This document shows positions 38,622-58,575 of a stretch of 64,000 bases of DNA, one piece after another; the first letter of the stretch is position 1; every line of letters begins with the position of its first letter. Under the pieces are notes generated by a model, which was not told the origin of the DNA, made no database searches, and saw only the letters and a program-made list of their open reading frames with translations. This stretch comes from Candidatus Nomurabacteria bacterium (GTDB taxonomy: Bacteria > Patescibacteriota > Minisyncoccia > Phycocordibacterales > UBA918): the NCBI GenBank assembly GCA_020632155.1, contig JACKGE010000001.1, forward strand, positions 156,011 to 220,010. The letters are read 5' to 3'. Position numbers and translations under genes: made by a program.

Positions 38622-39002
38622 ATGAATAACGACTATACGGAGCACAAAACAGCCCTTGAAAATGAGCTGTCTATGCTAACAACTGAGCTTGCAGGACTTG
38701 GTATTCAAGACCCGCACAATCCAGCCGACTGGATTGCCAAGCCAGATAGTGAGACCGGTGGCGAGCCTGACCCTAATGATGTTGCCGACCGCACCGAGGA
38801 CTGGGATGAGCGACGTGCCACCGTCGCACTCCTTGAGACTCGTTTTAACAACATCACCCGCGCCCTTAATAAATTTAATACGGGTACGTACGGCGTCTGT
38901 GAGATATCTGGTGAACCCATTGAAGCAGACCGACTAGCAGCTAACCCAGCGGCCCGAACTTGTAAAAAACATTTAGAAGCCGAGTCAGACCTACCGGCAT
39001 AA
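38622..39002 (+). CDS. DksA/TraR-family protein (general stress protein 16O-like; zinc finger partly degenerate)
   Basis: C-terminal GVCEISGEPIEADRLAANPAARTC; TATAAT 7 nt upstream of the ATG (leaderless); the ORF-track start at 38451 is rejected. Confidence 0.5.
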   Translation: MNNDYTEHKTALENELSMLTTELAGLGIQDPHNPADWIAKPDSETGGEPDPNDVADRTEDWDERRATVALLETRFNNITRALNKFNTGTYGVCEISGEPIEADRLAANPAARTCKKHLEAESDLPA

Positions 39003-40519
39003 TGTCAGTAGCCCAAGTACATACTGCTCAACCCGGTGTACTTAGGGGTGACCTCGTCACCATTGAAGCAGACCTCTCTCGGGGTCTGCATTCGTTTACC
39101 ATTGTTGGCCTTGCAGGAAAAGCCGTCGACGAAGCCAAAGACCGTGTCAGTGCCGCTATTAAAAATAGCGGCTTCCCCTCACCAAAAAGCAAGAACCAAA
39201 AGATTACCATCTCACTGGCTCCCGGTGATCTTAAAAAGGAAGGGCCACTCTATGACCTGCCAATCGCTATCGCCTATCTGCGTGCTGCTGATGAACTGAA
39301 AATAAACACGACTGGTATGGCATTTTTCGGTGAATTATCTCTTAGTGGTGATGTGCGCCCCATCAAAGGAACGTTGACCGCTGTACAAGCAGTCCGTGAC
39401 GCGGGCATAGAGACCGTCTTTGTGCCAAGCGAAAATGCCCGAGAAGCAGCACTAGTCACCGGAGTGAATGTGTACCCGATTGAGAGCCTGCTGCAACTAA
39501 TACAACATCTCGACGTAGACCGAACTGACCATGCACAAATCATGCCAGTGCCAGCGACCACGATTGAAGCACGGTGGTCAAAGGCACACGTACGTCTTGA
39601 GGACATCAAAGGGCAGCAGTCTGCCAAACGCGGAATGCTGATTGCTGCTGCTGGCAGACACAACGCTCTTCTGGTTGGACCGCCGGGGACCGGTAAGACC
39701 ATGCTGGCCAAGGCTCTTCAAGGCATTTTGCCGCCTCTTTCGCAAGACGAAGCACTTGAGGTCCTCGGTATCCATTCACTGGTCGGGACACTTACTGGTG
39801 AGGTCAGCAGTGTGCCGCCGTTTCGCGCACCTCATCACACCGCTTCACATACCGCCTTGGTGGGCGGGGGTACCCATCCGCGTCCCGGCGAAGTAACCCT
39901 AGCCCACAATGGTGTGCTGTTTATGGATGAATTTGCTGAGTTTGAACGTCGCAGTCTTGATGCTCTTCGACAACCACTTGAAGACAGGGTGGTATCCATT
40001 TCGCGCGTACAGGGCAGCTCTACGTTTCCGGCAGACTTCATGCTCATTGCAGCACTTAATCCGTACCGAGGTAGCGAAGATGGTAGTAGCAATTATGCGG
40101 CCGCTATGTTTGAGACCTATAAACACAAAGTCTCTGGACCAGTACTTGACCGTATCGATCTGTGGCTCACCGTGCCGCACCTTGACCATGAAACACTAGC
40201 AAACCAAGTGGAAGAGTCGGGGCAGACTGACAAAGCGCGTGAGCAGATACTGCAAGCGCGGGAGCGTCAGGTGGCGCGGTTATCTGGTCGCGGCGTACGG
40301 ACCAACGCGACTATGACCGCTCGTGACCTCGAAGAAATCATTGAGCTGAGTGCCGAAGTAAAAGAGCTTTTAACCGCTTCGGCCCAAAAACTTAACCTCT
40401 CACCACGTAGTTACCATCGCCTCATTAAAGTCGCGCGTACCATTGCCGATCTCGACAATAAAGACGATATTGAAGCGTCACACATACTTGAAGCCTTGCA
40501 GTATCGAGTGAAAGTGTAA
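39002..40519 (+). CDS. comM: YifB/ComM-family Mg-chelatase-like AAA+ ATPase
   Basis: N-terminal Lon-like domain, Walker A LLVGPPGTGKTMLAKAL and the C-terminal ChlI-like region. Confidence 0.85.
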   Translation: MSVAQVHTAQPGVLRGDLVTIEADLSRGLHSFTIVGLAGKAVDEAKDRVSAAIKNSGFPSPKSKNQKITISLAPGDLKKEGPLYDLPIAIAYLRAADELKINTTGMAFFGELSLSGDVRPIKGTLTAVQAVRDAGIETVFVPSENAREAALVTGVNVYPIESLLQLIQHLDVDRTDHAQIMPVPATTIEARWSKAHVRLEDIKGQQSAKRGMLIAAAGRHNALLVGPPGTGKTMLAKALQGILPPLSQDEALEVLGIHSLVGTLTGEVSSVPPFRAPHHTASHTALVGGGTHPRPGEVTLAHNGVLFMDEFAEFERRSLDALRQPLEDRVVSISRVQGSSTFPADFMLIAALNPYRGSEDGSSNYAAAMFETYKHKVSGPVLDRIDLWLTVPHLDHETLANQVEESGQTDKAREQILQARERQVARLSGRGVRTNATMTARDLEEIIELSAEVKELLTASAQKLNLSPRSYHRLIKVARTIADLDNKDDIEASHILEALQYRVKV

Positions 40520-45876: not shown

Positions 45877-47336
45877 TCATGTTACGTTTTCACAAAAAAT
45901 TAACAAGTCTACTACTGGTAACGCTGTTGGTGTACAGTGGGCTTTCGTTCTCTCCACACTCAGCTGAGGCAGTTGTGCAAGTGGATGTAAGGTCTACAAT
46001 CCTCAAAGGACCGGTAGATCAGATCAATTCAAATACCCAGAATATCTATCAACTTCTAAACAATATTTGGAAAAAGGAGTCTGTTGATGACCCCGCGGCT
46101 TGGAACCGTTCCAAAGATGCTGCTCGCCAACTAACCGGACGAATGCTTGTGCAGGTCGCTTCCGGCTTTGACGGCTCACCGACCTTTGTGGTGAATCTCT
46201 CAATCTTTATGCAAAAAGTGCAAGACCGAACTACCTACCAATTCATCCATAGTGACGATCTGGAAGGCATTAGTGATGCCTTTGAATTTCAGATCCGAGT
46301 GGCCGTTGCTGAGAGTTATGATAAACAACGTACCTATAAACCCAAGTCAACCATCGACGACCTGACTGGGAACCGCACACAGGACTTTTTTGCCGGCACC
46401 TACAATGAACCAAACTACCTACAGGTGTGGCTAGAGAGTACTGTTGGTGACCCATACAACGAACCCATACGAGCCGCTCTTGACGCTGAGGTACAAAGTG
46501 GCTTGCGCAACCTTGAGGTACTTAACACAGAGGTCAACAACAAACTGGATTGGAGTGAGGGGTACCTCACGATGCGCTGGTGTACCGAAACCCCGACCTC
46601 AACCGGCGGCGTGGAGCGTGACTGTTTTGACACGCAGCCTGGCTCGCTCGTCAAGCAGGGGGCGAATTACATTCTGGGTGAACTACCGGCCAGCATCTTG
46701 CTACAGGAGGATGAGATAAACGAAGGTATCAGTGAGACTTTCTCCGGTCTCAGTGCACAGATAATCGGCGGCGAGAACGGCCTTTTGGGCATTGGCTCCT
46801 CACCACTTAGTGTTAACACGTTTGGGACCGACGGCAGTTCATCGTATCTTGATGAACTTGTGGGACGCAGTGGTGGCACCGGACCGAGCACGTATTACAA
46901 CCCAATCGCTGAGTCACTTAAGGCTGAGATCGAGTTCGGCTCACTTCAGCAAGAGGTTCTTGATGAGGTGGAGCGAATTGAGGGACTCCTAGCAAGTAGT
47001 ACCGACCAGTATGGATACTGCTTTGCCATGACTCTTTCGAGCGATCTTGATGAGGCCAAGACTACAGCCGAAGACGCCCTTGATGCTTCCAAGACTGTAC
47101 GCCAGATACTCGAGCTTCTTAATGATGCGTTTCTCTCAGCGCCCGATCAGGCGAGTGCTGACCTAGTACTTGAACAATATAACCAACTAGATGATCAGGG
47201 GGTCTTTACTACCGAGATCGATAACGAAGAGTTTAAAAACTACTACCTCAACAGTGAGTTTAAGGCCATGGTCAATGAGTTTGAAAAGGGAATAGCCACG
47301 CAGCTTCTTAAATGTATTGACCAACCAACATCATGA
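45873..47336 (+). CDS. Hypothetical secreted protein (signal peptide), translationally coupled within the T4SS-like operon
   Basis: Signal peptide …LVYSGLSFSPHSAEA; overlaps both neighbours by 4 nt. Confidence 0.5.
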   Translation: MIMLRFHKKLTSLLLVTLLVYSGLSFSPHSAEAVVQVDVRSTILKGPVDQINSNTQNIYQLLNNIWKKESVDDPAAWNRSKDAARQLTGRMLVQVASGFDGSPTFVVNLSIFMQKVQDRTTYQFIHSDDLEGISDAFEFQIRVAVAESYDKQRTYKPKSTIDDLTGNRTQDFFAGTYNEPNYLQVWLESTVGDPYNEPIRAALDAEVQSGLRNLEVLNTEVNNKLDWSEGYLTMRWCTETPTSTGGVERDCFDTQPGSLVKQGANYILGELPASILLQEDEINEGISETFSGLSAQIIGGENGLLGIGSSPLSVNTFGTDGSSSYLDELVGRSGGTGPSTYYNPIAESLKAEIEFGSLQQEVLDEVERIEGLLASSTDQYGYCFAMTLSSDLDEAKTTAEDALDASKTVRQILELLNDAFLSAPDQASADLVLEQYNQLDDQGVFTTEIDNEEFKNYYLNSEFKAMVNEFEKGIATQLLKCIDQPTS

Positions 47337-49420
47337 TGTTTGCAAGACAAAAAGAGAGCAGGTTAGTGGCAACATTGTTAGTTGGACTGCTGTTTGCGTT
47401 TTTTGCCAGCGCCGTGGCACTCCCCGTTCACGCCCAAGGAGTTCCAAGTCCTGAGGGAGCAACGGCTGCAAAACAAACGGCAGATGGTCAGCCTGCACCC
47501 CAATCAGATGCACCCGAAGCGAGTAAAAGCGGTCCGATTCAAAAAGGTTCTGATGTGGCTAAAGACAAAAGTGCGCAGTATATCTACGACTTTTTTATCA
47601 TGATCGGCGGCGGGGCGGTGTGGCTTGGCGGCATGTTGCTTGACACCTCTATCGATGTCCTTGCTGTCAACATGGGAAAATTCGTACAGAACAATATGCT
47701 CTCTGCCATAAACGAGCTGTGGAAGGTCATTCGCGATATCTTTAATCTTCTCTTTATATTCGGTTTAATTTACATTGGCTTTCAAACCATTCTAGGAGAC
47801 GACACCAATATGCGGCGCGGCTTGGTAACACTTATTGCAGCAGCTCTGTTGATAAACTTCAGCCTCTTTTTCACTAAAGTGATTGTTGATTTTTCCAATG
47901 TGGCTGCGTATCAAGTGTATGAATTACTAGGTGGAGCCAATGCCACCTACCAAGCCACCAGTGAATCTGACCCCTTTAAAGGTATTGCTGCTGCGGTGAT
48001 GCTGCGCTCCCAGCTTAACTCCTATGCTAACCAACAGACAGATCAGGGCACAAAAAAACTTGAGTGGGGTCAGGCCGTCTTTTACGGCTTTATGGTGATG
48101 TGCATGATGTTAATGGCCGCGTTCGTCTTTTTGGCTGGTAGTTTTATGCTCATCAGCCGCTTTTTGGTGTTAGTGATAGGCATGATCCTATCTCCACTAC
48201 TTTTTCTCGGTATGGTCTTCCCACAGTTTTCGGGCACTAGCAAGGGCTGGTGGACAACCTTTCTCAAAAACGCCTTTGTAGCACCAGCCTATCTTTTTAT
48301 GGTTTACCTATCGCTGCGAGTCCTTGAAGGTATCAATGCCAGCGAAGCCATCTACGCTTCATTCACTGATGGTGGTGGTTTTACGGTTTTCATTACCTTC
48401 TGTCTGGTAATCGGCTTTTTATACGCGTCACTCCTAGTAGCCCAAAACATGGGAGGGAAGGGTGCCAAGATGGCCATCGGTGCCGCTCACTCAGTGCGTA
48501 AACAAGTACAAACCGCGGCTGGTAACGTTGTACTAGGGGGCACGGCTAAAGGTTTGCGCGCTACTGTTGGAAGAGCCGCCTACAATAGGGCTAATGACGA
48601 GAGTCTAAAAGACAAAGCGGCCAATAGCTGGATTGCGAGACAAAGACTCAAAACAGCGACTATGCTTAGCGGCAGTAGTCTTGATGCACGTCAGGTTGGT
48701 GGTGTTGGTAAGAGACTTGGTATTGGTACGGGTAGAAAGGGTGGCTTTTCTGGCGAGCAGGAAAAGGTCACTAAGGCAGAGAAGGGATTTGCCGATCGTC
48801 TTGGTACAGTTGATGATAAGGACGCATCAGTTGCCTACTTAAAAGATAGAATTGGTGACACAGAGGAGGCTATAAAGCTAACAAAAATCAACCTAGCAGC
48901 AGCTTCTAAACCTGAGGACAAACGTCGCTACGCTGCTGAGCGCGATCAGCTTGAAGAAGAGCTTAAGAAACGTCAGTCTGACTACAAAAAAGAAAAAGGT
49001 CGTCGCCAAAGTGGTAGCGTAGTTGATGGTACTAAGGTCGCTGAACAGAGACAAAAAGAGGAGCCTATCCGAACTCAGATCGTTACCTTGCGAGAGGCAC
49101 GTCAAGTAGCTGTCAGTAGCGGTAACGCTGAAAGAGTAGCAGACATTGATAACCAGCTCTTAGAACAACATAAACGACTAGAAACCATGCAAGCTAGTTT
49201 TGTACAAGAAGAAGCAAAAGGTGGTTACGGTAATGTGGTACAGAATCGGGGCAGACTTACATCTTGGATCACTGGGCGGGAGCGTGTTAAAAACAGAAAT
49301 GCTGGAGAAGAAATACTTAAGGCAGCTGGAAAAAAGGTTAAACAAACCAAAGATGACGAACATTTCCAGAGTCTTCGTGATGATCTTGGTAAACTTAACA
49401 ACGATAAAGATAATGCCTAA
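47333..49420 (+). CDS. VirB6/TrbL-like polytopic membrane protein: signal peptide, at least 6 TM, long charged coiled-coil C-terminal tail
   Basis: Topology typical of T4SS VirB6/TrbL inner-membrane channel proteins; assignment by architecture and context only. Confidence 0.45.
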   Translation: MMFARQKESRLVATLLVGLLFAFFASAVALPVHAQGVPSPEGATAAKQTADGQPAPQSDAPEASKSGPIQKGSDVAKDKSAQYIYDFFIMIGGGAVWLGGMLLDTSIDVLAVNMGKFVQNNMLSAINELWKVIRDIFNLLFIFGLIYIGFQTILGDDTNMRRGLVTLIAAALLINFSLFFTKVIVDFSNVAAYQVYELLGGANATYQATSESDPFKGIAAAVMLRSQLNSYANQQTDQGTKKLEWGQAVFYGFMVMCMMLMAAFVFLAGSFMLISRFLVLVIGMILSPLLFLGMVFPQFSGTSKGWWTTFLKNAFVAPAYLFMVYLSLRVLEGINASEAIYASFTDGGGFTVFITFCLVIGFLYASLLVAQNMGGKGAKMAIGAAHSVRKQVQTAAGNVVLGGTAKGLRATVGRAAYNRANDESLKDKAANSWIARQRLKTATMLSGSSLDARQVGGVGKRLGIGTGRKGGFSGEQEKVTKAEKGFADRLGTVDDKDASVAYLKDRIGDTEEAIKLTKINLAAASKPEDKRRYAAERDQLEEELKKRQSDYKKEKGRRQSGSVVDGTKVAEQRQKEEPIRTQIVTLREARQVAVSSGNAERVADIDNQLLEQHKRLETMQASFVQEEAKGGYGNVVQNRGRLTSWITGRERVKNRNAGEEILKAAGKKVKQTKDDEHFQSLRDDLGKLNNDKDNA

Positions 49421-50051: not shown

Positions 50052-50462
50052 ATGAGATTTGAAGTACCGCAATTCATTGAGATTGAAGATAAAATATTTG
50101 GCCCCTTTACATGGCGCCAATTCATCTATATCGGGGGTGGCGCTGGTATCGCTACAGTCTTGTTCTTTGTAGCACCTTTTTTCATCTTTGTGCTCTTTGG
50201 ACTACCAATCGCTGGACTGACGTTCTTACTCGGTTTCTATCCGATTAATAACCAGCCATTTTCAATCTTTCTTGAGTCGATGGTTGGGTATTTTCGAAAT
50301 AGTCGACTTTACCTGTGGCGAAAATCAGGTACTGGTGTCTATGGTCAAGACGAGGACGAGGCGCAAAGCAGTCAAAGCTATTCAGTACCTACCTCAGGTA
50401 GCAACCTTACCTCACTGTCCCGCAAGCTGGAACTAAAAGCCATTCAGCGCCAAAGTAATTGA
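50052..50462 (+). CDS. PrgI/VirB3-like small T4SS membrane protein
   Basis: The N-terminal IEIEDKIFGPFTWRQFIYIGGG motif followed by two TM helices, as in the PrgI family of Gram-positive conjugation systems. Confidence 0.55.
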   Translation: MRFEVPQFIEIEDKIFGPFTWRQFIYIGGGAGIATVLFFVAPFFIFVLFGLPIAGLTFLLGFYPINNQPFSIFLESMVGYFRNSRLYLWRKSGTGVYGQDEDEAQSSQSYSVPTSGSNLTSLSRKLELKAIQRQSN

Positions 50463-51091
50463 TTATGTCAAACAAACAAGCTTCAACTCAGAACTTCGTA
50501 CCAGTCCGTGATATCAAAGATAACGTGGCAATTTTAAAAAATGGTCAGCTCAACATGGTGCTCTTGGCCTCATCAGTAAACTTCGCTCTTAAATCACTCG
50601 ACGAACAGGCAGCCATATTGGCACAATTCCAGTCATTTTTAAATACACTTGATTTTTCAGTGCAATTCTACGTGCAGTCACGGAAACTCAATATCAAACC
50701 CTATATAGAAAAATTACGAGCTCGCGAATCAGAACAGTACAACGACCTCATGTCTATTCAGTTACGTGAGTATATTCAGTTTGTGCAGGCATTTACCAGT
50801 GAGGTGAATATCATGAGTAAGAATTTTTTCGTTGTTGTCCCTTATACACCGGTAGCTGCTAATCTACAGTCGGGCATTCCTGATTTTTTTGGAAAGAAAA
50901 AAACCTACTTTGACGATAAAAATTTTGCTGAGCATAAATCACAGCTAGAGCAGCGCGTACTCTTAGTTGAGCAAGGTCTCAGCCGAATCGGTGTACGAAG
51001 TATCGTGCTTGAAAGCGAGGAGCTGGTAGAATTGTTCTATCATACCTTCAACCCAGGGGACATCGAGGGTGAAGCACCAAATAGTAAATGA
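50459..51091 (+). CDS. Hypothetical T4SS-associated protein resembling the VirB4/TrbE N-terminal domain
   Basis: VAILKNGQLNMVLLASSVNF…FLNTLDFSVQFYVQSRK resembles the TrbE/VirB4 N-domain pattern; the stop lies 1 nt before the VirB4 ATG (TGAtATG). Confidence 0.35.
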   Translation: MIMSNKQASTQNFVPVRDIKDNVAILKNGQLNMVLLASSVNFALKSLDEQAAILAQFQSFLNTLDFSVQFYVQSRKLNIKPYIEKLRARESEQYNDLMSIQLREYIQFVQAFTSEVNIMSKNFFVVVPYTPVAANLQSGIPDFFGKKKTYFDDKNFAEHKSQLEQRVLLVEQGLSRIGVRSIVLESEELVELFYHTFNPGDIEGEAPNSK

Positions 51092-51092
51092 T

Positions 51093-52907
51093 ATGGGTTT
51101 GTTTGATCTCATAAAAAAGAATACCGGGCCAGAAACAACTACCCCGAAGACACTCAACACCGAAACAGCTTTGATGACTCTTGAGGATGTAGTGGCTCCA
51201 TCAGCTGTAAATGTTCAACCACGGAGTATCAATATCAGTGGTACTAATGCCCGTGTATTCTTTGCAGTTTCGTACCCGCGCTACCTCAATGATGGTTGGC
51301 TTGAACCGATCCTCAATCTCGAACGGGAAATGGACATCAGTATCATGATCCACCCGATTGATACTGCGGAGACCTTAAAGAAATTCCAAAAGAAAGTAGC
51401 CGAGGTGCAAAGCCAGATTAATATCCGCGCTGAACAAGGTTTAGTACGTGATCCGCAACTCGAAGCTGCCTACCGCAACCTTGAGGACCTGCGCGATAAA
51501 CTGATGCAAGCAGAGGAAAAGCTTTTCAATACCGGTCTTTATATTGCTATCTATGGAACTGATGAAGCTGAGCTCAATAAGACTGAAGCAGAAATCAAAG
51601 GAATTCTTGATTCCCGTCTGGTGTATATAAAACCCGCGCTCTTTCAGCAAGAGCAGGGGTTTAAGAGCATCATCCCAACCATGACCGACGAGCTGTTGGT
51701 CCATAGCAAGTTCAACTCCTCTCCGCTTTCTAGCTTTTTCCCATTTACGTCATTTGATCTTACCTCTGACAACGGGATTCTCTACGGCATAAACCGCCAT
51801 AACTCTTCTCTCATTCTCTTTGATCGTTTCCAACTAACAAACTACAACTCTGTGACCTTCGCCACATCAGGTGCTGGAAAGTCATACACAACAAAGTTGG
51901 AAATCTTACGCTCACTTATGTTCGGCGCTGAGGTTATTGTCATCGACCCTGAGCGTGAGTATGAGTACCTCGCGGAGGCCACGGGTGGCCGATTCTTCAA
52001 CATTTCACTCTCGTCCTCACACCACATCAACCCATTTGACCTACCATTGCCGCAAAAAGACGAGAGTCCTGAAGATGTACTACGCTCACATATCATTGAG
52101 CTTATTGGCCTCTTCCGGCTTATGCTTGGTGGCCTTGCGCCGGAAGAAGAGACCGTCATCGATCAAGCACTCCATGAAGTGTACGCCCTGAAGGATATCA
52201 GCGGTGACGTGGATTTCTCGCAGCTTGAGCCGCCACTCCTCACAGACTTTGAAATGGTACTGGCCGGTATGGAAGGCAGTGCCTCGCTTATCTCGCGTCT
52301 GCAAAAATACACCTCTGGTACGTGGTCAGGCTTTATGAATCAGCCAACTAACGTAGATGTGAACCAAAAGTTCGTGGTCTTCTCTCTTCGCGATATGGAG
52401 GATGAACTGAAGACCATCGCCATGTACATCATTACCAACCACATTTGGAGCGCTATCCGTAGGCGCCTCCAGAAGCGCCTCCTTGTTATCGACGAGGCGT
52501 GGTGGATGATGAAGTCTGAAGACACCGCCTCCTTCCTCTTTTCTCTTGCTAAGCGCGGCCGCAAATACTACCTTGGTCTTTCTACTATCACCCAAGACGT
52601 AAGTGACTTCTTGCGTTCGCCATACGGGGTACCAATGATCACCAACTCTTCATTGCAGCTACTCATGAAACAGTCACCTACCTCTATTGATACCATCCAG
52701 CAAACCTTTAATCTCACTGATGAAGAAAAAATGCTCCTTCTCGAGTCGAGTGTGGGGGAGGGAATCTTCTTTGCGGGCCTCAAGCACGTAGCCATCAAGG
52801 TCATTGCCTCATACACTGAAGACCAGATTATCACCTCTGATCCATCGCAGATATTACAAATAAGAAATGCCCGCGCAGAACTAGAAGCTGCTGAGGGTAG
52901 CGCTTAG
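51093..52907 (+). CDS. virB4: VirB4/TrbE/PrgJ-family T4SS ATPase
   Basis: Walker A FATSGAGKSYTTK, Walker B LLVIDEAWWM, and the C-terminal VirB4 motifs. Confidence 0.8.
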   Translation: MGLFDLIKKNTGPETTTPKTLNTETALMTLEDVVAPSAVNVQPRSINISGTNARVFFAVSYPRYLNDGWLEPILNLEREMDISIMIHPIDTAETLKKFQKKVAEVQSQINIRAEQGLVRDPQLEAAYRNLEDLRDKLMQAEEKLFNTGLYIAIYGTDEAELNKTEAEIKGILDSRLVYIKPALFQQEQGFKSIIPTMTDELLVHSKFNSSPLSSFFPFTSFDLTSDNGILYGINRHNSSLILFDRFQLTNYNSVTFATSGAGKSYTTKLEILRSLMFGAEVIVIDPEREYEYLAEATGGRFFNISLSSSHHINPFDLPLPQKDESPEDVLRSHIIELIGLFRLMLGGLAPEEETVIDQALHEVYALKDISGDVDFSQLEPPLLTDFEMVLAGMEGSASLISRLQKYTSGTWSGFMNQPTNVDVNQKFVVFSLRDMEDELKTIAMYIITNHIWSAIRRRLQKRLLVIDEAWWMMKSEDTASFLFSLAKRGRKYYLGLSTITQDVSDFLRSPYGVPMITNSSLQLLMKQSPTSIDTIQQTFNLTDEEKMLLLESSVGEGIFFAGLKHVAIKVIASYTEDQIITSDPSQILQIRNARAELEAAEGSA

Positions 52908-52910
52908 GCT

Positions 52911-53576
52911 ATGGTCGTTCAAGCTGCAGCGGCCGCGGGCGTGCGAGTGGCGGCCAAGAAGGCGGCCACAAAAACTGCGACTAGGAACACCTCACGGATG
53001 ACACCGGGGATACATAACGCTAAAATTGTTACTCGTCGTACGGTGGACCGTAACACGGCCCTCACTCAACAACGTGCTCGAACCCCAAATGCAGCAAGTC
53101 ATCGTCGTAATCGCTTTACTAACGCAGGCGAACAATCCAAAACGCATGGGAGTGAGTCGGCTCCACTATCAGCGATAGCTGAAGGACGACGCGAGTTTGC
53201 TTTTTTCATCGGCAATATGGTTGCGTGGCCATTGGCCGCACCCCAATTGGTTATGGGGGTACTCACTATCATATCTCTTGTGGCGTGGATAGGAGCTGAA
53301 GAATTGTCGTGGGGACTGTCTGACTACATATTGCCAACTGACATTATATTTACTATCAACTGGGGAGCAGCGATAGTACTTGGCCTATTGTCATTAGCTG
53401 GAGTAACGTTTATTCTTCTTTTAGTCGGGAAAATACCCATTTTTAGCAGGTTTAGTCGTCTGTTTTTACTTGTTATATTTATGGCGCTCACTATATTCCC
53501 AATGACCTCATTTATTCCTTTTGGACTTATCTTCCTGTGGATTATCCGACTAACCCACCACCGAAAAAACTCGTAA
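52911..53576 (+). CDS. Hypothetical 4-TM membrane protein with an Arg/Lys-rich N-terminus; part of the T4SS-like cluster
   Basis: Basic N-terminal 90 aa followed by four hydrophobic helices. Confidence 0.45.
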   Translation: MVVQAAAAAGVRVAAKKAATKTATRNTSRMTPGIHNAKIVTRRTVDRNTALTQQRARTPNAASHRRNRFTNAGEQSKTHGSESAPLSAIAEGRREFAFFIGNMVAWPLAAPQLVMGVLTIISLVAWIGAEELSWGLSDYILPTDIIFTINWGAAIVLGLLSLAGVTFILLLVGKIPIFSRFSRLFLLVIFMALTIFPMTSFIPFGLIFLWIIRLTHHRKNS

Positions 53577-53615
53577 CGAAGCGATATGCTATCCTAAAGA
53601 GACCAATAGGATTCC

Positions 53616-54317
53616 ATGTTAAGGATTATAACAATACTGATGGGAGGGGTGCTTTTGGCAGGGTACACCACACCTGCATTGGCACAAATAACTAATGATT
53701 CCCTTCATATCTACTTTGAACCACAAACGATCACACCCGATCTCTATTTTGGCCGTAGTGAAGCGACAGTCGGTAGTACCGTGCGAGCCGTAGCAATAAT
53801 TAATGGTGAGAATGATCCTTCGGAGCATTACTATCGTTGGCACGCTGGCGCAGAGAATATTGGAGCCGGCATTGCCAAAGGACAAAATACCGTAGACATC
53901 CCGTTGTTGTTTAGTGACGAATCGATAATCAGTGTGGATGTGTACGACAAAGACCTTACGTTGCTAGCTACCGCTTCTGAGTTCCTCGAACTCAGCGAAC
54001 CAGAAGTGCATTTTTATGAAGACAATCCATTGCGTGGCATGTCCACAACCGCCATGGGTGACTCATACATACTGACCGGCAACGAAATCAGGGTCCGTGC
54101 AATACCATATTTTATGTCAAAGGATATTTTGACAAACAATCCAAAACTCGTTTGGAGTCTTGACCGCCAGACCACAAAAAATATAAATGGTGACCCTCTA
54201 CTTTTGACCTTAGAAGCCCCCGAAGGAAAAAGCGGAAAGACGTTAGTTGAGTTTTATCTGCATAACACCAAGAATTTATTGCAATCGGTTTCAGAAAAGG
54301 TGCTTATCTCTTTTTAG
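53616..54317 (+). CDS. Hypothetical secreted protein (signal peptide) in the T4SS-like cluster
   Basis: Signal peptide MLRIITILMGGVLLAGYTTPALA. Confidence 0.45.
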   Translation: MLRIITILMGGVLLAGYTTPALAQITNDSLHIYFEPQTITPDLYFGRSEATVGSTVRAVAIINGENDPSEHYYRWHAGAENIGAGIAKGQNTVDIPLLFSDESIISVDVYDKDLTLLATASEFLELSEPEVHFYEDNPLRGMSTTAMGDSYILTGNEIRVRAIPYFMSKDILTNNPKLVWSLDRQTTKNINGDPLLLTLEAPEGKSGKTLVEFYLHNTKNLLQSVSEKVLISF

Positions 54318-54318
54318 T

Positions 54319-55473
54319 ATGAACAAAACACTCTTTATCAGCATACTTGGTACCATAACACTTTTGGTTTTAGGTCTATGGTTTTACCTTATATTCAATG
54401 GGACACCTGAATCAACAAGTGATATCTTCACTAACTTTAGCCTCGGTGGAAACAGCCCTGAACGACCAGCAGTAATTACCGAGAAGTCGAACGATCCAAG
54501 TACTGTCGTTGATACCAGCAGCCACACACTCAACCAACTCACCACTAAATCGGTAGCAGGCTATGTAGCTATAAACAGCACTTCGAGTAGTATGGTACGC
54601 TACGCCGAACGAGGCACTGGCTATATATTTGATATTGATCTAGGAACTGGACAGGAAGAGCGGCGTTCTGGTACTACCTTTACACGAATAACACAGGCCA
54701 CCTTCTCACCATCTGGAAACTGGGTGCTGCTGCAGAGTGATACTGATACTGAGCTAGTGTACCTAACTGCTAGTAGTACATACGGTACAGCCGAAACTAT
54801 TACAGAAAAAGTAGAAAATGTCAGCTTCACTGACACAGCGCTATACTACACCGTTCGTACCTCAGACAGCACTGTTGGAATTCGACGTGACTTGGTAAGT
54901 GGTGCACAGACTGAGATATTTTCTACTCCCCTGACTGAAATTGACGTTGTGTGGTCTGGTGATTCAGCATATTTCTTTAATCGACCATCAGCGCTGATGC
55001 GCGGCAGTGTGTATAGATTGTCAGGCAGTACCCATAGTCTTCTTTTTGGTCCAGAGTACGGTTTGTTCGCCACGCAGCTAACCGCCGCCACGTGGCTGGT
55101 AAGCACTATTGATACAGAAAAACAAACATACCAGACCATAGTCTTAGATGAAGCAAACAATAGCCAGCAACTAATAGCAATAATGGGTCTGCCCGGTAAA
55201 TGTGATTACAGTGAAAACCATGGTCTATGGTGCCTTGGATCGCTGGACTTAGAACCAAGACCTGACGCTGTACACGATTGGTTTGTTGGCGCTGCCGATA
55301 GCAGCGATCTCATTTGGTCAGTTGATATGGAGACTGGTGAAGCCACCTTGTCAGAAGACCCGTACGAAACACTTGGATACACGTTAGATGGTCAAGCGGC
55401 CACTATAAAGGGTACTAGGTTTTTCTTTATCAACCGCACCAATAGTTCTCTCTGGAGCTATGACCTAGAATAA
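54319..55473 (+). CDS. Hypothetical N-terminally anchored extracellular protein (about 385 aa) in the T4SS-like cluster
   Basis: Start chosen at MNKTLF, 1 nt after the upstream stop; TM anchor then a Ser/Thr-rich, beta-rich domain. Confidence 0.45.
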   Translation: MNKTLFISILGTITLLVLGLWFYLIFNGTPESTSDIFTNFSLGGNSPERPAVITEKSNDPSTVVDTSSHTLNQLTTKSVAGYVAINSTSSSMVRYAERGTGYIFDIDLGTGQEERRSGTTFTRITQATFSPSGNWVLLQSDTDTELVYLTASSTYGTAETITEKVENVSFTDTALYYTVRTSDSTVGIRRDLVSGAQTEIFSTPLTEIDVVWSGDSAYFFNRPSALMRGSVYRLSGSTHSLLFGPEYGLFATQLTAATWLVSTIDTEKQTYQTIVLDEANNSQQLIAIMGLPGKCDYSENHGLWCLGSLDLEPRPDAVHDWFVGAADSSDLIWSVDMETGEATLSEDPYETLGYTLDGQAATIKGTRFFFINRTNSSLWSYDLE

Positions 55474-55477
55474 CTGC

Positions 55478-56278
55478 ATGGTGTTAGTGTCTCGTATAGA
55501 AAAAAGCTGGAGTACCTTCAAAGTAGCTTTTTTTATTCTAAGCTTGTTAGTAATACCACTGCTAGGTCAAGCTGCTGGCCCCAGCACCCTCGTTGATATA
55601 CCACAGGTAAATAGTGCCAACGGTATTAATGGATATATTGAAGCGCTCTATACACTAGCTATCACTGCAGCTTCCCTCATTGCTATTATTCAACTCATCA
55701 AGGCTGGTTCAAAATATGTCTTTTCAGCGGTGGTGACTGACAAAGGTGAAGCAAAAAAAGATATCCGTAATGCTCTGATCGGCCTCTTGATCATCATTGG
55801 TGCGGTCACCATTTTAAATGAGATCAATCCGCAGTTGACCAACTTGAATATACTCGGTAACGCTACGCAACTAACAAATCCGGGAGGGAGTAATGTGCCT
55901 GATCTTTCTATCCCCGACTACTTAAAACCTTCATCAAATCAGAATTTGAGTTTGATAAAGTGTTCTGGGCAAAAAAATGATGTCGGGGAATTAGATTGTA
56001 GTGCGGCGATACAGAAATGTCTGAACCAAAATGGTACCACTAGAAATAACAAGGTTATGAGTGGCAATTTGTTATGTTACACAAATGTACAAACGTGTAA
56101 CGGTTACTACGATCAGCAGACAAAGACTTGTTATGATAATACTGTTGGCCTTGGGGAGGAATTTTCACAAGAGGGTGAAAATATTAGACAACAAGAATGC
56201 CTGCGTGTAACCCAATCACAAGGAGAATATATAAATGGCGTTTGTTACAGACGTGCTAATACGGGACAAGGCCTGTAA
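55478..56278 (+). CDS. VirB2/TrbC-like pilin-domain protein (signal peptide plus two hydrophobic helices) fused to a 10-Cys C-terminal domain; paralog A
   Basis: Helix-loop-helix pilin-like core (LYTLAITAASLIAIIQLIKAGSKYVF…ALIGLLIIIGAVTIL); C-terminal CSGQKNDVGELDCSAAIQKCLNQ…. Confidence 0.5.
   Translation: MVLVSRIEKSWSTFKVAFFILSLLVIPLLGQAAGPSTLVDIPQVNSANGINGYIEALYTLAITAASLIAIIQLIKAGSKYVFSAVVTDKGEAKKDIRNALIGLLIIIGAVTILNEINPQLTNLNILGNATQLTNPGGSNVPDLSIPDYLKPSSNQNLSLIKCSGQKNDVGELDCSAAIQKCLNQNGTTRNNKVMSGNLLCYTNVQTCNGYYDQQTKTCYDNTVGLGEEFSQEGENIRQQECLRVTQSQGEYINGVCYRRANTGQGL
55575..55900 (+). repeat. 326 bp direct repeat copy 1 (100% identical to 56446-56771), covering the pilin-like core of paralog A
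   Basis: Exact nucleotide identity found by direct comparison. Confidence 0.9.
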
Positions 56279-56339
56279 TAAATGTGGGCTGTCAACATAA
56301 ACAGATCCTGCTTTAAGGGTTATGGCCTAGAATAAAGGC

Positions 56340-57053
56340 ATGAAATGCTCAATACATAAGGGGGTCGGCTGGTTTCTAGTGTTTTGCTACAGCAGTCTCT
56401 TTATTTTTTTCTTTTTGCCCACCTTTGCTTTAGCGGCAACAGGTTCTGGCCCCAGCACCCTCGTTGATATACCACAGGTAAATAGTGCCAACGGTATTAA
56501 TGGATATATTGAAGCGCTCTATACACTAGCTATCACTGCAGCTTCCCTCATTGCTATTATTCAACTCATCAAGGCTGGTTCAAAATATGTCTTTTCAGCG
56601 GTGGTGACTGACAAAGGTGAAGCAAAAAAAGATATCCGTAATGCTCTGATCGGCCTCTTGATCATCATTGGTGCGGTCACCATTTTAAATGAGATCAATC
56701 CGCAGTTGACCAACTTGAATATACTCGGTAACGCTACGCAACTAACAAATCCGGGAGGGAGTAATGTGCCTATTGCCGAAGTGGGTGGAAGCGCTAACGT
56801 TAATGACATAACTAGCGAACAGCGCGCCAAGTGGGTTCAGGAATGTGAACGAAAAGGAGGTAAGGTTGAACTTCATGGAACTTTAGGACAAGGAGGAACG
56901 ACTATACACTGTAATGAAGAGTCAACAGGGCGCCCAACGCTAATGGACCCACTTCCGGTTAACTACACAGCAGCGCAATTAGCTGAGTATACAAAAAAGT
57001 GCATTACAGAATTACAGGGTGTAATGCACAATAACACTTGTGTTTCCAGGTAA
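56340..57053 (+). CDS. VirB2/TrbC-like pilin-domain protein fused to a different 5-Cys C-terminal domain; paralog B
   Basis: Identical pilin-like core; distinct signal peptide and C-terminal domain (…CERKGGKVELHGTLGQGGTTIHCNEE…). Confidence 0.5.
   Translation: MKCSIHKGVGWFLVFCYSSLFIFFFLPTFALAATGSGPSTLVDIPQVNSANGINGYIEALYTLAITAASLIAIIQLIKAGSKYVFSAVVTDKGEAKKDIRNALIGLLIIIGAVTILNEINPQLTNLNILGNATQLTNPGGSNVPIAEVGGSANVNDITSEQRAKWVQECERKGGKVELHGTLGQGGTTIHCNEESTGRPTLMDPLPVNYTAAQLAEYTKKCITELQGVMHNNTCVSR
56446..56771 (+). repeat. 326 bp direct repeat copy 2
   Basis: Identical to 55575-55900. Confidence 0.9.
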
Positions 57054-57074
57054 TAAAACCCTCTTTGGTTTACG

Positions 57075-57803
57075 TTACCGGTGCCTGCGAACAAGATACT
57101 CTTGCACAAGGGCCATCAGGTTTGAGATAGTAAAGTAGATAGCAATGGCCGCTGAAATGGTGTACGCCACCATGAAGATGATAAGCGGCATCATGTAGCG
57201 CATCTGAAGCTGCATGCTGCGCGCAAAGTCAGCTTTCATGTCGAGCACCTCATCCTTTTTTCGCGGCTCGGGTTTTGGAATGGAAAGCTGGGCGTGAATA
57301 AACTGGGTAATACCGGCCAGTAGCGCGAGGGGCAGACTTTTTTGGGTAATATCCATAAAGCCAAGAAAAATCATATTGACCGTTTCCGGTGTCGGCACAA
57401 AGGCGTAGAGTACTGCCGTGTTTATCTCCGGCAGCGGAACACCGCCGCCGCGGGCTACCGAGAAATAGAGCGCAATAATAATCGGTATTTGCACAAAGAG
57501 CAGGATGACACTTGCAAACGGATTAAGGCCAGCGTCACGATAGACCTCCATCATTTCACGCGCCTGCTCTTCACGCTTATCTTTAAGGCGTTCTTTGATC
57601 TCTTTGAGCTTCGGGTCAAGCTCTTTCATTATCTTTTGGGTGCGAGCGGCCTTAAGGGAGAGCGGGAGGAGGAATACCTTGACCACAATGGTAGTTAAAA
57701 TAATAGAGAGACCTACATCACCCCCCGGTACCACATCAATGAAGTACACAAGAATGTTATAGATGGGGTCAAAAAAGAATAAGTGCCAAATAGTGCTCCA
57801 CAT
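57075..57803 (-). CDS. yidC: Membrane protein insertase YidC (short Gram-positive/Oxa1-like form)
   Basis: 5-TM YidC core; canonical position downstream of rnpA. Confidence 0.8.
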   Translation of the reverse strand: MWSTIWHLFFFDPIYNILVYFIDVVPGGDVGLSIILTTIVVKVFLLPLSLKAARTQKIMKELDPKLKEIKERLKDKREEQAREMMEVYRDAGLNPFASVILLFVQIPIIIALYFSVARGGGVPLPEINTAVLYAFVPTPETVNMIFLGFMDITQKSLPLALLAGITQFIHAQLSIPKPEPRKKDEVLDMKADFARSMQLQMRYMMPLIIFMVAYTISAAIAIYFTISNLMALVQEYLVRRHR

Positions 57804-57820
57804 ACGTACGAAATCCTAAG

Positions 57821-58144
57821 CTAGGATAATTTAGTGAGAAGACTGGTAAGTTCGTCGCGCACCGCTTGATACGGAGCGTTTTTTGCGGTCGGTTTCACCA
57901 AGACAATATATACTCCTTTGGCTGATTTGGCCACTTTTTGGGCATAGAGGATGCCATAGAGACGGCGGCGCATGCGATTGCGGTCATGTGCTTTAGAAAA
58001 TACCTTTTTACCAACTACCACCGCGCCGTGGAACTCGTCACTTGGGTTATAGATGATGCCTACATACTGCCCATGTAGGCGGCGGCCAGTCTGGTAATAG
58101 TGATCAAATTCTTTAGTTGTGAGGCGTTGTTGTTTCTGTAACAT
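57821..58144 (-). CDS. rnpA: Ribonuclease P protein component
   Basis: VGKKVFSKAHDRNRMRRRL matches the RnpA RNR motif. Confidence 0.85.
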   Translation of the reverse strand: MLQKQQRLTTKEFDHYYQTGRRLHGQYVGIIYNPSDEFHGAVVVGKKVFSKAHDRNRMRRRLYGILYAQKVAKSAKGVYIVLVKPTAKNAPYQAVRDELTSLLTKLS

Positions 58145-58176
58145 ACTGATTGTAGTGTTATGTACTACTATACCAA

Positions 58177-58222
58177 CAAAAAAGCGCTGTCTCTAAGAAG
58201 GGGAGACAGCGCTTTTTTGTCT
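58177..58222 (-). terminator. Hairpin between rpmH and rnpA (gcgctgtctc…gagacagcgc flanked by A and T runs); attenuator-like
   Basis: 10 bp stem plus T-run on the minus strand. Confidence 0.55.
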
Positions 58223-58333
58223 TTAGCGGCTCTTCTTGACCGCAAGTGACGCGCGGCCTTTGCGGCGGCGGCTACGGAGAACAGCCACACCACTTTTGGT
58301 CTTGGTACGAGCCAAGAAACCATGGGTGGTCAT
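58223..58333 (-). CDS. rpmH: 50S ribosomal protein L34 (36 aa; [36 protein letters not shown]); not in the ORF track
   Basis: Sequence and position upstream of rnpA. Confidence 0.85.
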
Positions 58334-58472
58334 GCGCTTTTTCTGAGAGGGTTGATATGTTCGTTTTGGCATTGCGCGAAACTATACCGCAGCAATTACA
58401 AAAAAGCAACAGTGAGCTATATGGTCACATCACAAAGACATACAGTTTTTTGACGAACACGGGCTTTTATTG

Positions 58473-58575
58473 TTGTGCACAGTTTGTGCACACTTGACAG
58501 TTGGCGCTTGCAAAACGGTTTGCTGTTTTTAAAAAATTTCAAAAATGTTTACAGCCTGCGTGAGGTAGGTATAAT
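58473..58575 (+). promoter_or_regulatory. dnaA promoter region: two direct TTGTGCACA boxes (58473-58481, 58484-58492), then a -35 TTTACA / -10 TATAAT sigma-70-like promoter (58544-58575)
   Basis: Motifs read directly; TTGTGCACA differs at two positions from the DnaA box TTATCCACA and is palindromic. Confidence 0.5.

Follow-up and report, generated by a model that had tools for sequence, protein, structure and literature searches.

The stretch of DNA considered here, 64,000 nucleotides of a Candidatus Nomurabacteria genome (assembly GCA_020632155.1, contig JACKGE010000001.1, positions 156,011 to 220,010 of the forward strand; hereafter the window, numbered from its first nucleotide), carries two adjacent genes, A and B, which share a 326-bp core without a single difference and differ in leader and C-terminal domain. 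We favour, with moderate confidence, the view that A and B are tandem VirB2-like pilin paralogues (PF18895) of a Patescibacteria type IV secretion system (T4SS) and that gene conversion keeps their cores identical. Because the identity is perfect, including all synonymous sites, and is embedded in genes that otherwise cannot be aligned, homologous recombination or gene conversion is needed to account for it.

A positionwise comparison within the 64-kb window shows that the two core copies agree at 326 of 326 bases in direct orientation, as an earlier note on this DNA had claimed, and that the extent of the match is maximal, with zero bases of extension possible at either end. Beyond these edges the ungapped identity of the flanks is 22–28%, a random level (27% on the signal-peptide side and 22–25% on the C-terminal side). 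The 5′ edge of the repeat falls at codon position 2 in both genes, such that the core is read in the same frame, and the corresponding protein segment extends from G(P)STLVD… to …GGSNVP. An exact match of this length across 64 kb excludes a chance origin. The window contains no third copy of the core by a 14-mer seed search and no third pilin open reading frame (ORF) by a family hidden Markov model (HMM) search, and the GC content of the individual segments, 37–46%, gives no clear foreign-DNA signal. A second and much shorter repeat of 22 nt, TATGrCCTAGAATAAnnGCATG, alike at 19 of 22 positions, lies directly 5′ of both start codons. The copy before B is what remains of the end of the upstream gene (encoding ‘YGLE’ and a stop), from which it follows that the pair goes back to a tandem duplication unit of about 862 bp, of which the core alone has escaped divergence; the second copy of the motif thus appears, from its sequence, to mark the old duplication unit.

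Table 1. Features of the pilin locus in the window, contigs from other samples that cover it, and related loci with near-identical pilin cores. Positions are those of the window.
Feature	Position	Strand	Remark
Pilin gene A, 266 aa	55478–56278	+	complete ORF, own ATG and hydrophobic leader
Gene A, leader	55478–55574	+	
Gene A, core	55575–55900	+	
Gene A, C-terminal domain	55901–56275	+	8 Cys
Pilin gene B, 237 aa	56340–57053	+	complete ORF, own ATG and hydrophobic leader
Gene B, leader	56340–56445	+	
Gene B, core	56446–56771	+	
Gene B, C-terminal domain	56772–57050	+	4 Cys
Shared core copy 1, 326 bp	55575–55900	+	mature N-terminus, two hydrophobic helices, KGEAKKD loop, start of linker
Shared core copy 2, 326 bp	56446–56771	+	exact match to copy 1
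Upstream motif copy 1, TATGACCTAGAATAACTGCATG	55459–55480	+	final codons and stop of 408-aa upstream gene, plus ATG of pilin A
Upstream motif copy 2, TATGGCCTAGAATAAAGGCATG	56321–56342	+	relic of upstream-gene 3′ end (‘YGLE*’) before pilin B
VirB6/TrbL-like polytopic membrane protein	47333–49420	+	weak PF04610; weak match to CD3337/EF1877 mobilome membrane protein
PrgI (VirB3-like)	50052–50462	+	PF12666, E=4.5e-10
TrsD-like protein (VirB4 N-terminal-like)	50459–51091	+	NCBIfam TrsD and VirB4_plasma matches
VirB4-type ATPase	51069–52907	+	PF19044, E=3.6e-25
Three conserved accessory genes (221, 233, 408 aa)	52911–55473	+	precede pilin gene(s) in most related loci
yidC	57075–57803	−	ORF; convergent, bounds pilin pair; then rnpA, rpmH
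dnaA	58578–59993	+	Pfam DnaA; dnaN follows (Pfam DnaN)
Contig L001	54421–56101		copy A with unique flanks on both sides
Contig L002	56314–57298		copy B with unique flanks on both sides
Contig L003	56314–57286		copy B with unique flanks on both sides
Contig L033	55846–57326		A C-terminus, gene B, yidC; one mismatch
Locus L023			432 bp at 99.5%, leader included; complete pair, 43.6-kb contig, same synteny
Locus L024			124 bp at 100%; contig ends within repeat
Locus L004			74 bp at 97%; contig ends within repeat
Locus L057			127 bp at 100%; contig starts within repeat
Loci L045/L046			about 310 bp at 94%; two pilins separated by 408-aa-type gene

The two proteins have an overall amino acid identity of 62–68%. 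AlphaFold models of A and B have a mean predicted local distance difference test score (pLDDT) of 70 and 72, with values of about 80–90 in the core, and present the same overall design: in A a leader helix is followed by helices 46–85 and 89–116 around the basic loop KGEAKKD and by a disordered linker (128–144), and in B by helices 49–85 and 91–119 and a linker at 129–150. This two-helix hairpin agrees with the earlier description of the shared segment as a VirB2-like helix–loop–helix core, and both models combine a cleavable leader, two hydrophobic helices and a short basic loop, cleavage being predicted by the −3/−1 rule only, with putative signal-peptidase sites at GQA/AG and ALA/AT (the slash marking the cut). 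The edges of the identical DNA coincide closely with these boundaries, the 5′ end lying 2–5 residues past the likely signal-peptidase sites and the 3′ end within the disordered linker. The predicted topology would place the N-terminus outside, the loop inside and the C-terminal domain outside. In the model of B the outer domain consists of two helix plus β-hairpin modules carrying C169/C191 and C221/C234, while that of A presents two such modules together with additional Cys-bearing strands; in the modules of both proteins one cysteine sits in the helix and one in the hairpin. The C-terminal domains are thus predicted to be the same kind of small helix plus β-hairpin module despite having no sequence similarity. 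The earlier note, which called them unrelated, was right in that sequence similarity is undetectable, although not as regards the kind of module that the models give. Its cysteine counts of 10 and 5 become, on recounting, eight in A, all of them in the C-terminal domain, and six in B (two in the leader and four in the C-terminal domain).

Neither outer domain has a recognizable relative. The C-terminal domain of A, searched against 5.8 billion proteins, retrieved only itself, and that of B, searched with HMMER against 1.84 billion representatives, retrieved itself and spurious matches to repetitive proteins; blastp comparison among the C-terminal regions of the relatives delineated several shared families, none of which includes either of the window's two. 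As both are orphans, the orthology of the A and B modules in other lineages cannot be established. The general design is nevertheless common, and large disulfide-rich extensions, which the earlier note considered unusual, are so only by comparison with classical VirB2. C-terminal regions of at least 60 aa (median 162 aa) are found in 61 of the 68 distinct family members sampled, every one of these 61 has an even and non-zero number of cysteines, and 36 of them end in the motif C-x(2-6)-G-x(4-32)-C. Disulfide-rich extensions are therefore the rule in the PF18895-type family as sampled.

Self-comparison of 77 related loci revealed near-identical cores joined to unrelated C-terminal parts in five further lineages (Table 1), which in a VirB4 tree are interspersed with lineages that have a single pilin. 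The pair in L023 is itself a mosaic, in which a core at 99.5% identity is followed by an unrelated middle, about 170 nt at roughly 60% and a last stretch of 90 nt at 98%, and in L045 the 17 differing core codons are bunched, with 11 of them in codons 46–60 between long identical tracts. Both patterns look as would be expected of patchy conversion. The most informative comparison is that between L004/L005 and L045/L046. Gene 2 of L004 has an extended pre-core region homologous to that of the second pilin of L045, and the C-terminus of L005 is homologous to that of the first pilin of L045 (76.6% over 453 nt); these shared paralogue-specific modules indicate that the paralogue types are older than the split between the two groups. 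The cores, however, are 97% identical within the L004 genome and 94% identical within the L045 genome, and only about 79% identical between genomes in all combinations. A core identity higher within than between genomes is, for these two groups, the classical signature of gene conversion. Modules have at the same time been reshuffled around the conserved core, as shown by the C-terminal type CT4, which occurs with three pre-core types, and the leader type SP2, which occurs with four C-terminal types, all on cores at least 80% identical; CT4 adjoins yidC in L005, but stands upstream of the 408-aa gene in L045. The swapping of C-terminal domains across homologous loci that the earlier note proposed to look for is therefore seen.

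In L023 an in-frame TAG of gene 2 takes the place of an AAT of gene 1 (L023:10027–10250), and the following 73 codons, read without a change of frame, correspond by homology to the final module of gene 1; the stop may have arisen by a mutation that truncates the gene, may be an error of sequencing or may have been left behind when the middle part was replaced. More distant Patescibacteria (L030:5802–9317, L080 and L082) present five to seven short pilin genes of 125–160 aa which lack long C-terminal domains and whose DNA repeats are 77–82% identical, corresponding to the published ‘divergent array’ type, in contrast to the pairs with identical cores.

In the mechanism that we envisage, RecA-type recombination between the two direct core repeats would homogenize the core by gene conversion, giving concerted evolution, and the conversion tract would end with the homology, at its 5′ edge close to the predicted signal-peptidase site and at its 3′ edge within the linker. 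Limitation of the tract to the core leaves leaders and outer domains free to diverge or to be exchanged. Each gene would then contribute its own Sec-type leader, the core, a disordered linker of about 20 residues and a small extracellular disulfide-stapled domain differing between the copies, and, with identical cores, the two subunits could be built into one and the same T4SS-dependent filament or stalk, which would display two different outer domains, plausibly for contact with the host bacterium. Co-expression and co-assembly of A and B, as well as surface display of the outer domains and a role for them in host binding, would all be part of this scheme. Where the earlier note spoke of ongoing gene conversion, recombination or conversion is indeed required by the core identity, while that the process is still ongoing in this genome is what we infer; its notion of a common scaffold carrying alternative outer domains fits the predicted topology well. 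An RNA or antisense-ORF element as the cause of the identity was set aside, as the same pattern occurs elsewhere on unrelated core sequences. A broader proposal, which we put forward as a tentative one and consider rather doubtful, is that the core acts as a population-wide recombination handle by which naturally transformable Patescibacteria would exchange, stack in tandem and lose small disulfide-stapled outer domains, the C-terminal domain being a modular and combinatorially shuffled host-recognition determinant along a heteropolymeric T4SS filament, the subunits of which would remain able to co-assemble since gene conversion keeps the cores alike.

The assignment of A and B to the pilins draws on family and genomic context. 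PF18895 (T4SS_pilin) matches A with E=0.004 and B with E=0.003, and 25 database relatives are 33–56% identical to the window pilins; all 27 members of the homologue alignment match PF18895 (E≤0.01, best 1.3e-7), five match TrbC/VirB2 (PF04956), and a precomputed PF18895 assignment exists for many homologues. The pilin genes close the T4SS operon, on the same strand as the VirB4 gene and 2.6 kb downstream of it, and dnaA lies 1.5 kb from B. No promoter-like or terminator-like site was found between A and B, scan counts being near shuffle expectation, and the two genes are probably co-transcribed with the T4SS operon. About 20 related loci share the order 408-aa gene, pilin, inverted yidC and dnaA, and the VirB4 of related loci is about 80% identical to that of the window at the amino acid level; these loci come from metagenome-assembled genomes (MAGs) of Patescibacteria labelled Kaiserbacteria, ‘Saccharibacteria’ or Minisyncoccia. 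The three accessory proteins of 221, 233 and 408 aa have no Pfam or NCBIfam matches, and the order of their genes is conserved in L023, L024 and L004. Neither a relaxase nor a coupling-protein (T4CP) domain was detected among the operon ORFs scanned. The remaining genes of the window are housekeeping genes. The system is a chromosomal, origin-proximal and relaxase-less Patescibacteria T4SS related to the mating-pair formation class FATA (MPF-FATA), in agreement with the published description of relaxase-less Patescibacteria T4SS abutting yidC/dnaA (Quinonero-Coronel et al., 2025; PMC12102498).

Some further features of this neighbourhood may be recorded. The ORFs listed for the 233-aa (53616–54317) and 408-aa (54247–55473) proteins overlap by 71 nt, and the TTG start of the latter is probably placed too far upstream, its relatives having 391–393 aa. 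A ComM/YifB-type Mg-chelatase-like AAA+ protein is encoded a few kb upstream of the T4SS operon (39002–40519); members of this family have a role in natural transformation of other bacteria. At L013:9665–10148 the pilin gene and yidC are separated by two small inserted genes that look like an antitoxin/toxin pair, and at L035:1503–2339 the pilin gene is followed immediately by the gene of an IS200/RAYT-like transposase of 224 aa, which lies between exact direct repeats of 100 bp, the contig terminating in the second of these.

Several observations weigh against tandem pilins homogenized by conversion. The window proteins score 17.6–17.9 bits against PF18895, below the curated cut-off of 26.6, and no solved VirB2 or TraA structure was recovered by sequence profile or fold search, a profile of the core finding nothing among PDB sequences; the label ‘pilin’ consequently rests on family HMMs, topology and operon context. 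A Patescibacteria T4SS pilus has never been observed, and a recent review refers to it as a possibility (PMC12857230). Most related genomes have a single pilin gene at the locus, and a pair is therefore not required for the system. As bubble popping in short-read (De Bruijn) assembly can fuse repeats that are nearly identical, the ‘100%’ identity may really be at least about 98% and hence be slightly inflated. Finally, no relative of the window species was found that is close enough to show the A-type and B-type modules to be old, and the argument for concerted evolution is made by analogy with other lineages.

The points concerning the pilus also speak for a different role, which we regard as a credible minority possibility, in which A and B are membrane-anchored two-helix stalks or T4SS channel parts that hold a small extracellular domain, and in which the identity of the cores serves docking to the same T4SS partner rather than co-polymerization. 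Besides the unobserved pilus and the lack of a specific match to solved pilins, it may be noted in its favour that monoderm MPF-FATA systems, to which the T4SS of the window is related, are without pili (PMC12102498), and that the best NCBIfam match of both proteins, a weak one, is to a ‘pilin-like conjugal transfer protein’ of mycoplasma integrative and conjugative elements. Topology, core size, basic loop and the PF18895 and TrbC matches are nevertheless those of a VirB2-type pilin, and Southlakia epibionticum cannot do without its pilin array (Wang et al., 2023; PMC10633639; reviewed in PMC12857230).

The identical cores could in principle reflect a single recent event rather than recurrent conversion, in which a second pilin allele from another strain, taken up by natural transformation, was integrated through a single crossover in the core or through unequal crossing-over, leaving in tandem two alleles that happen to have the same core. 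The L023 unit does resemble such a duplication or integration: identity is 99.5% across core and leader and 98% across the last 90 nt and the intergenic tail, the tail of copy 1 holds a relic of the 3′ end of yidC, and gene 2 presents a new middle before the relic of a gene 1-type module, which is behind the in-frame stop. Patescibacteria are, moreover, naturally transformable (PMC10633639), and a comparison of L004:244–862 with L005:112–730 reveals 26 single-nucleotide polymorphisms (SNPs) in 620 bp of the 5′ part of virB4 as against one in the next 4.6 kb, a block that may be a sign of imported DNA in such populations. In the window, however, a core free of differences stands beside leaders that cannot be aligned and a 22-nt relic that already has mismatches at 3 of its 22 positions, which is unlike the outcome of one recent event. 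A donor with an identical core and an unrelated leader and C-terminus would itself presuppose that cores are homogenized in the population, and cores group by genome in spite of the greater age of the paralogue types. We therefore consider a single event unlikely and conversion the better explanation.

A programmed switch, in which recombination between the direct repeats would select the expressed C-terminal domain in the manner of pilE/pilS or a shufflon, as the earlier note suggested, is in our view very improbable. What recommends it is chiefly the locus L005, which comes from a sister sample of L004 and is 99.45% identical to it over 5.4 kb; here a single gene (L005:5028–5819), directly before yidC, joins leader 1 of L004 and the core to an alternative C-terminus, as would fit a deletion between cores, with three SNPs relative to L004 gene 1 at the 3′ end of the core. 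Contigs also break within the repeat in several assemblies. It is just as likely that L005 arose where the assembler passed through a stretch of about 165 identical bases; the two cases cannot be distinguished, and L005 was rejected as proof of deletion within the population. Both copies in the window are complete, with start codon and leader, and the window holds no third or silent copy; the search of 5.8 billion proteins yielded no hybrids that join the leader of one gene to the C-terminus of the other and no third C-terminus on the core of the window, but only the two known combinations. Recombination between direct repeats deletes irreversibly and does not switch, and neither a recombinase nor an invertase turned up in the operon genes or in those other ORFs of the window that were scanned. 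Inverted repeats are absent from the pair, the single inverted pair in 54000–58500 lying elsewhere. Complete copies, direct repeats, the lack of a silent cassette in the window and of a recombinase among the genes scanned thus argue against the analogy drawn in the earlier note. A diversity-generating retroelement target was likewise rejected, as the two repeats show no differences and lie in the conserved rather than the variable part; the ORFs scanned, which were part of those in the window, include no reverse transcriptase.

The tandem arrangement is real and is not a misassembly specific to the window. Contigs of the same species, four in number and from four other samples, together cover the two copies and the junction at 99.6–99.9% identity to the window, with cores 100% identical in all four, such that each copy is seen within its own unique flanks and the junction from A to B is seen independently (Table 1). 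That the repeat is an assembly artefact through collapse or false duplication of the region, which the earlier note named as grounds for refutation and which might be suspected since short-read metagenome assembly is prone to errors at identical repeats longer than a read, related contigs terminate within the repeat and L001 ends in a palindromic artefact, is rejected as extremely improbable, given that each copy lies in a different unique context on both sides, that A, B and the junction are reproduced by the contigs from the other samples, that complete pairs lie within contigs of 43.6 kb (L023) and 57.7 kb (L046), and that both reading frames are intact. The palindrome in L001 (1610–1743) is an inverted copy of the last ~120 bases of the contig, located at its end, and gives rise to the false C-terminus of the database protein P0001 (…NITNCHS), which was for this reason rejected as an alternative arrangement. 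L002 and L003, although derived from different samples and assemblers, start identically at window position 56314, 7 nt 5′ of the upstream motif of gene B, a position across which L033 is continuous.

These observations bear on pilin function and host-range determinants in Patescibacteria, a huge and mostly uncultured group of ultrasmall bacteria, whose one genetically tractable member cannot live as an epibiont without the T4SS and its pilin array. The combination of a constant core, a flexible linker and a fast-evolving disulfide-stapled domain suggests the outer domain as a candidate determinant of host contact, and homogenization of the core together with reshuffling of the outer domains points to the same candidate. 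As pairs with identical cores break or collapse in short-read assemblies, the pilin copy number in MAGs is probably underestimated.

Among known systems, the R64 shufflon switches the C-terminus of PilV by means of inverted 19-bp sfx repeats and the Rci recombinase and so sets recipient specificity. It resembles the window in joining alternative C-terminal segments to the constant N-terminal part of a pilus-associated protein, while the repeats of the window are direct and 326 bp long, with no recombinase among the neighbours scanned. Neisseria pilE/pilS combines a conserved N-terminal with a variable C-terminal pilin part by RecA-dependent gene conversion between repeats, its donors being many promoterless, 5′-truncated silent cassettes from which transfer is unidirectional into one expression site. 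The window shares with it the constant N-terminal and variable C-terminal pilin part and a conversion that would take place between repeated pilin sequences. It differs in having two complete, expressed-looking copies, in that the conserved part is the one homogenized, and in the pilin class, which is that of type IV pili in Neisseria and VirB2 here.

The published Patescibacteria T4SS arrays are like the window in their PF18895 pilins, in the set of VirB4, PrgI/VirB3, VirB6-like and TrsD-like proteins, in their position next to dnaA and in the tandem arrangement of the VirB2-like genes, but are divergent in sequence: among 441 VirB2 arrays of 2–11 genes, within-array amino acid identity has a mean of 25% and a maximum of 54% (PMC12102498), whereas the pair in the window has a nucleotide-identical core and differs in leader and C-terminal domain. 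The picture of an identity never above 54% is corrected by this pair. Thus the T4SS and pilin array were already known, while the mosaic of identical core and variable outer domain, its recurrence, concerted evolution and shuffling are undescribed in the searchable literature; concerted evolution and module shuffling are not described in the principal accounts (PMC10633639, PMC12102498, PMC12857230), and no publication in that literature joins Patescibacteria, pilin and gene conversion.

The trwL array of the Bartonella Trw system is the closest functional precedent. As summarized in PMC2883598 (citing Nystedt et al., 2008), tandem copies of trwL (VirB2) and trwJ (VirB5) have undergone concerted evolution and diversifying selection, and the variants are thought to be co-expressed as surface forms, for which host-specific adhesion has been proposed. 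Trw and, as far as its genes were scanned, the system of the window are both T4SS without a coupling protein that present tandem pilin paralogues and recombination among copies accompanied by diversification. Unlike the system of the window, Trw is a diderm MPF-T system acquired from a plasmid, and its trwL copies are short classical VirB2 proteins without a separate C-terminal globular domain; variation is spread across the pilin itself, whereas in the window it resides in the appended domain.

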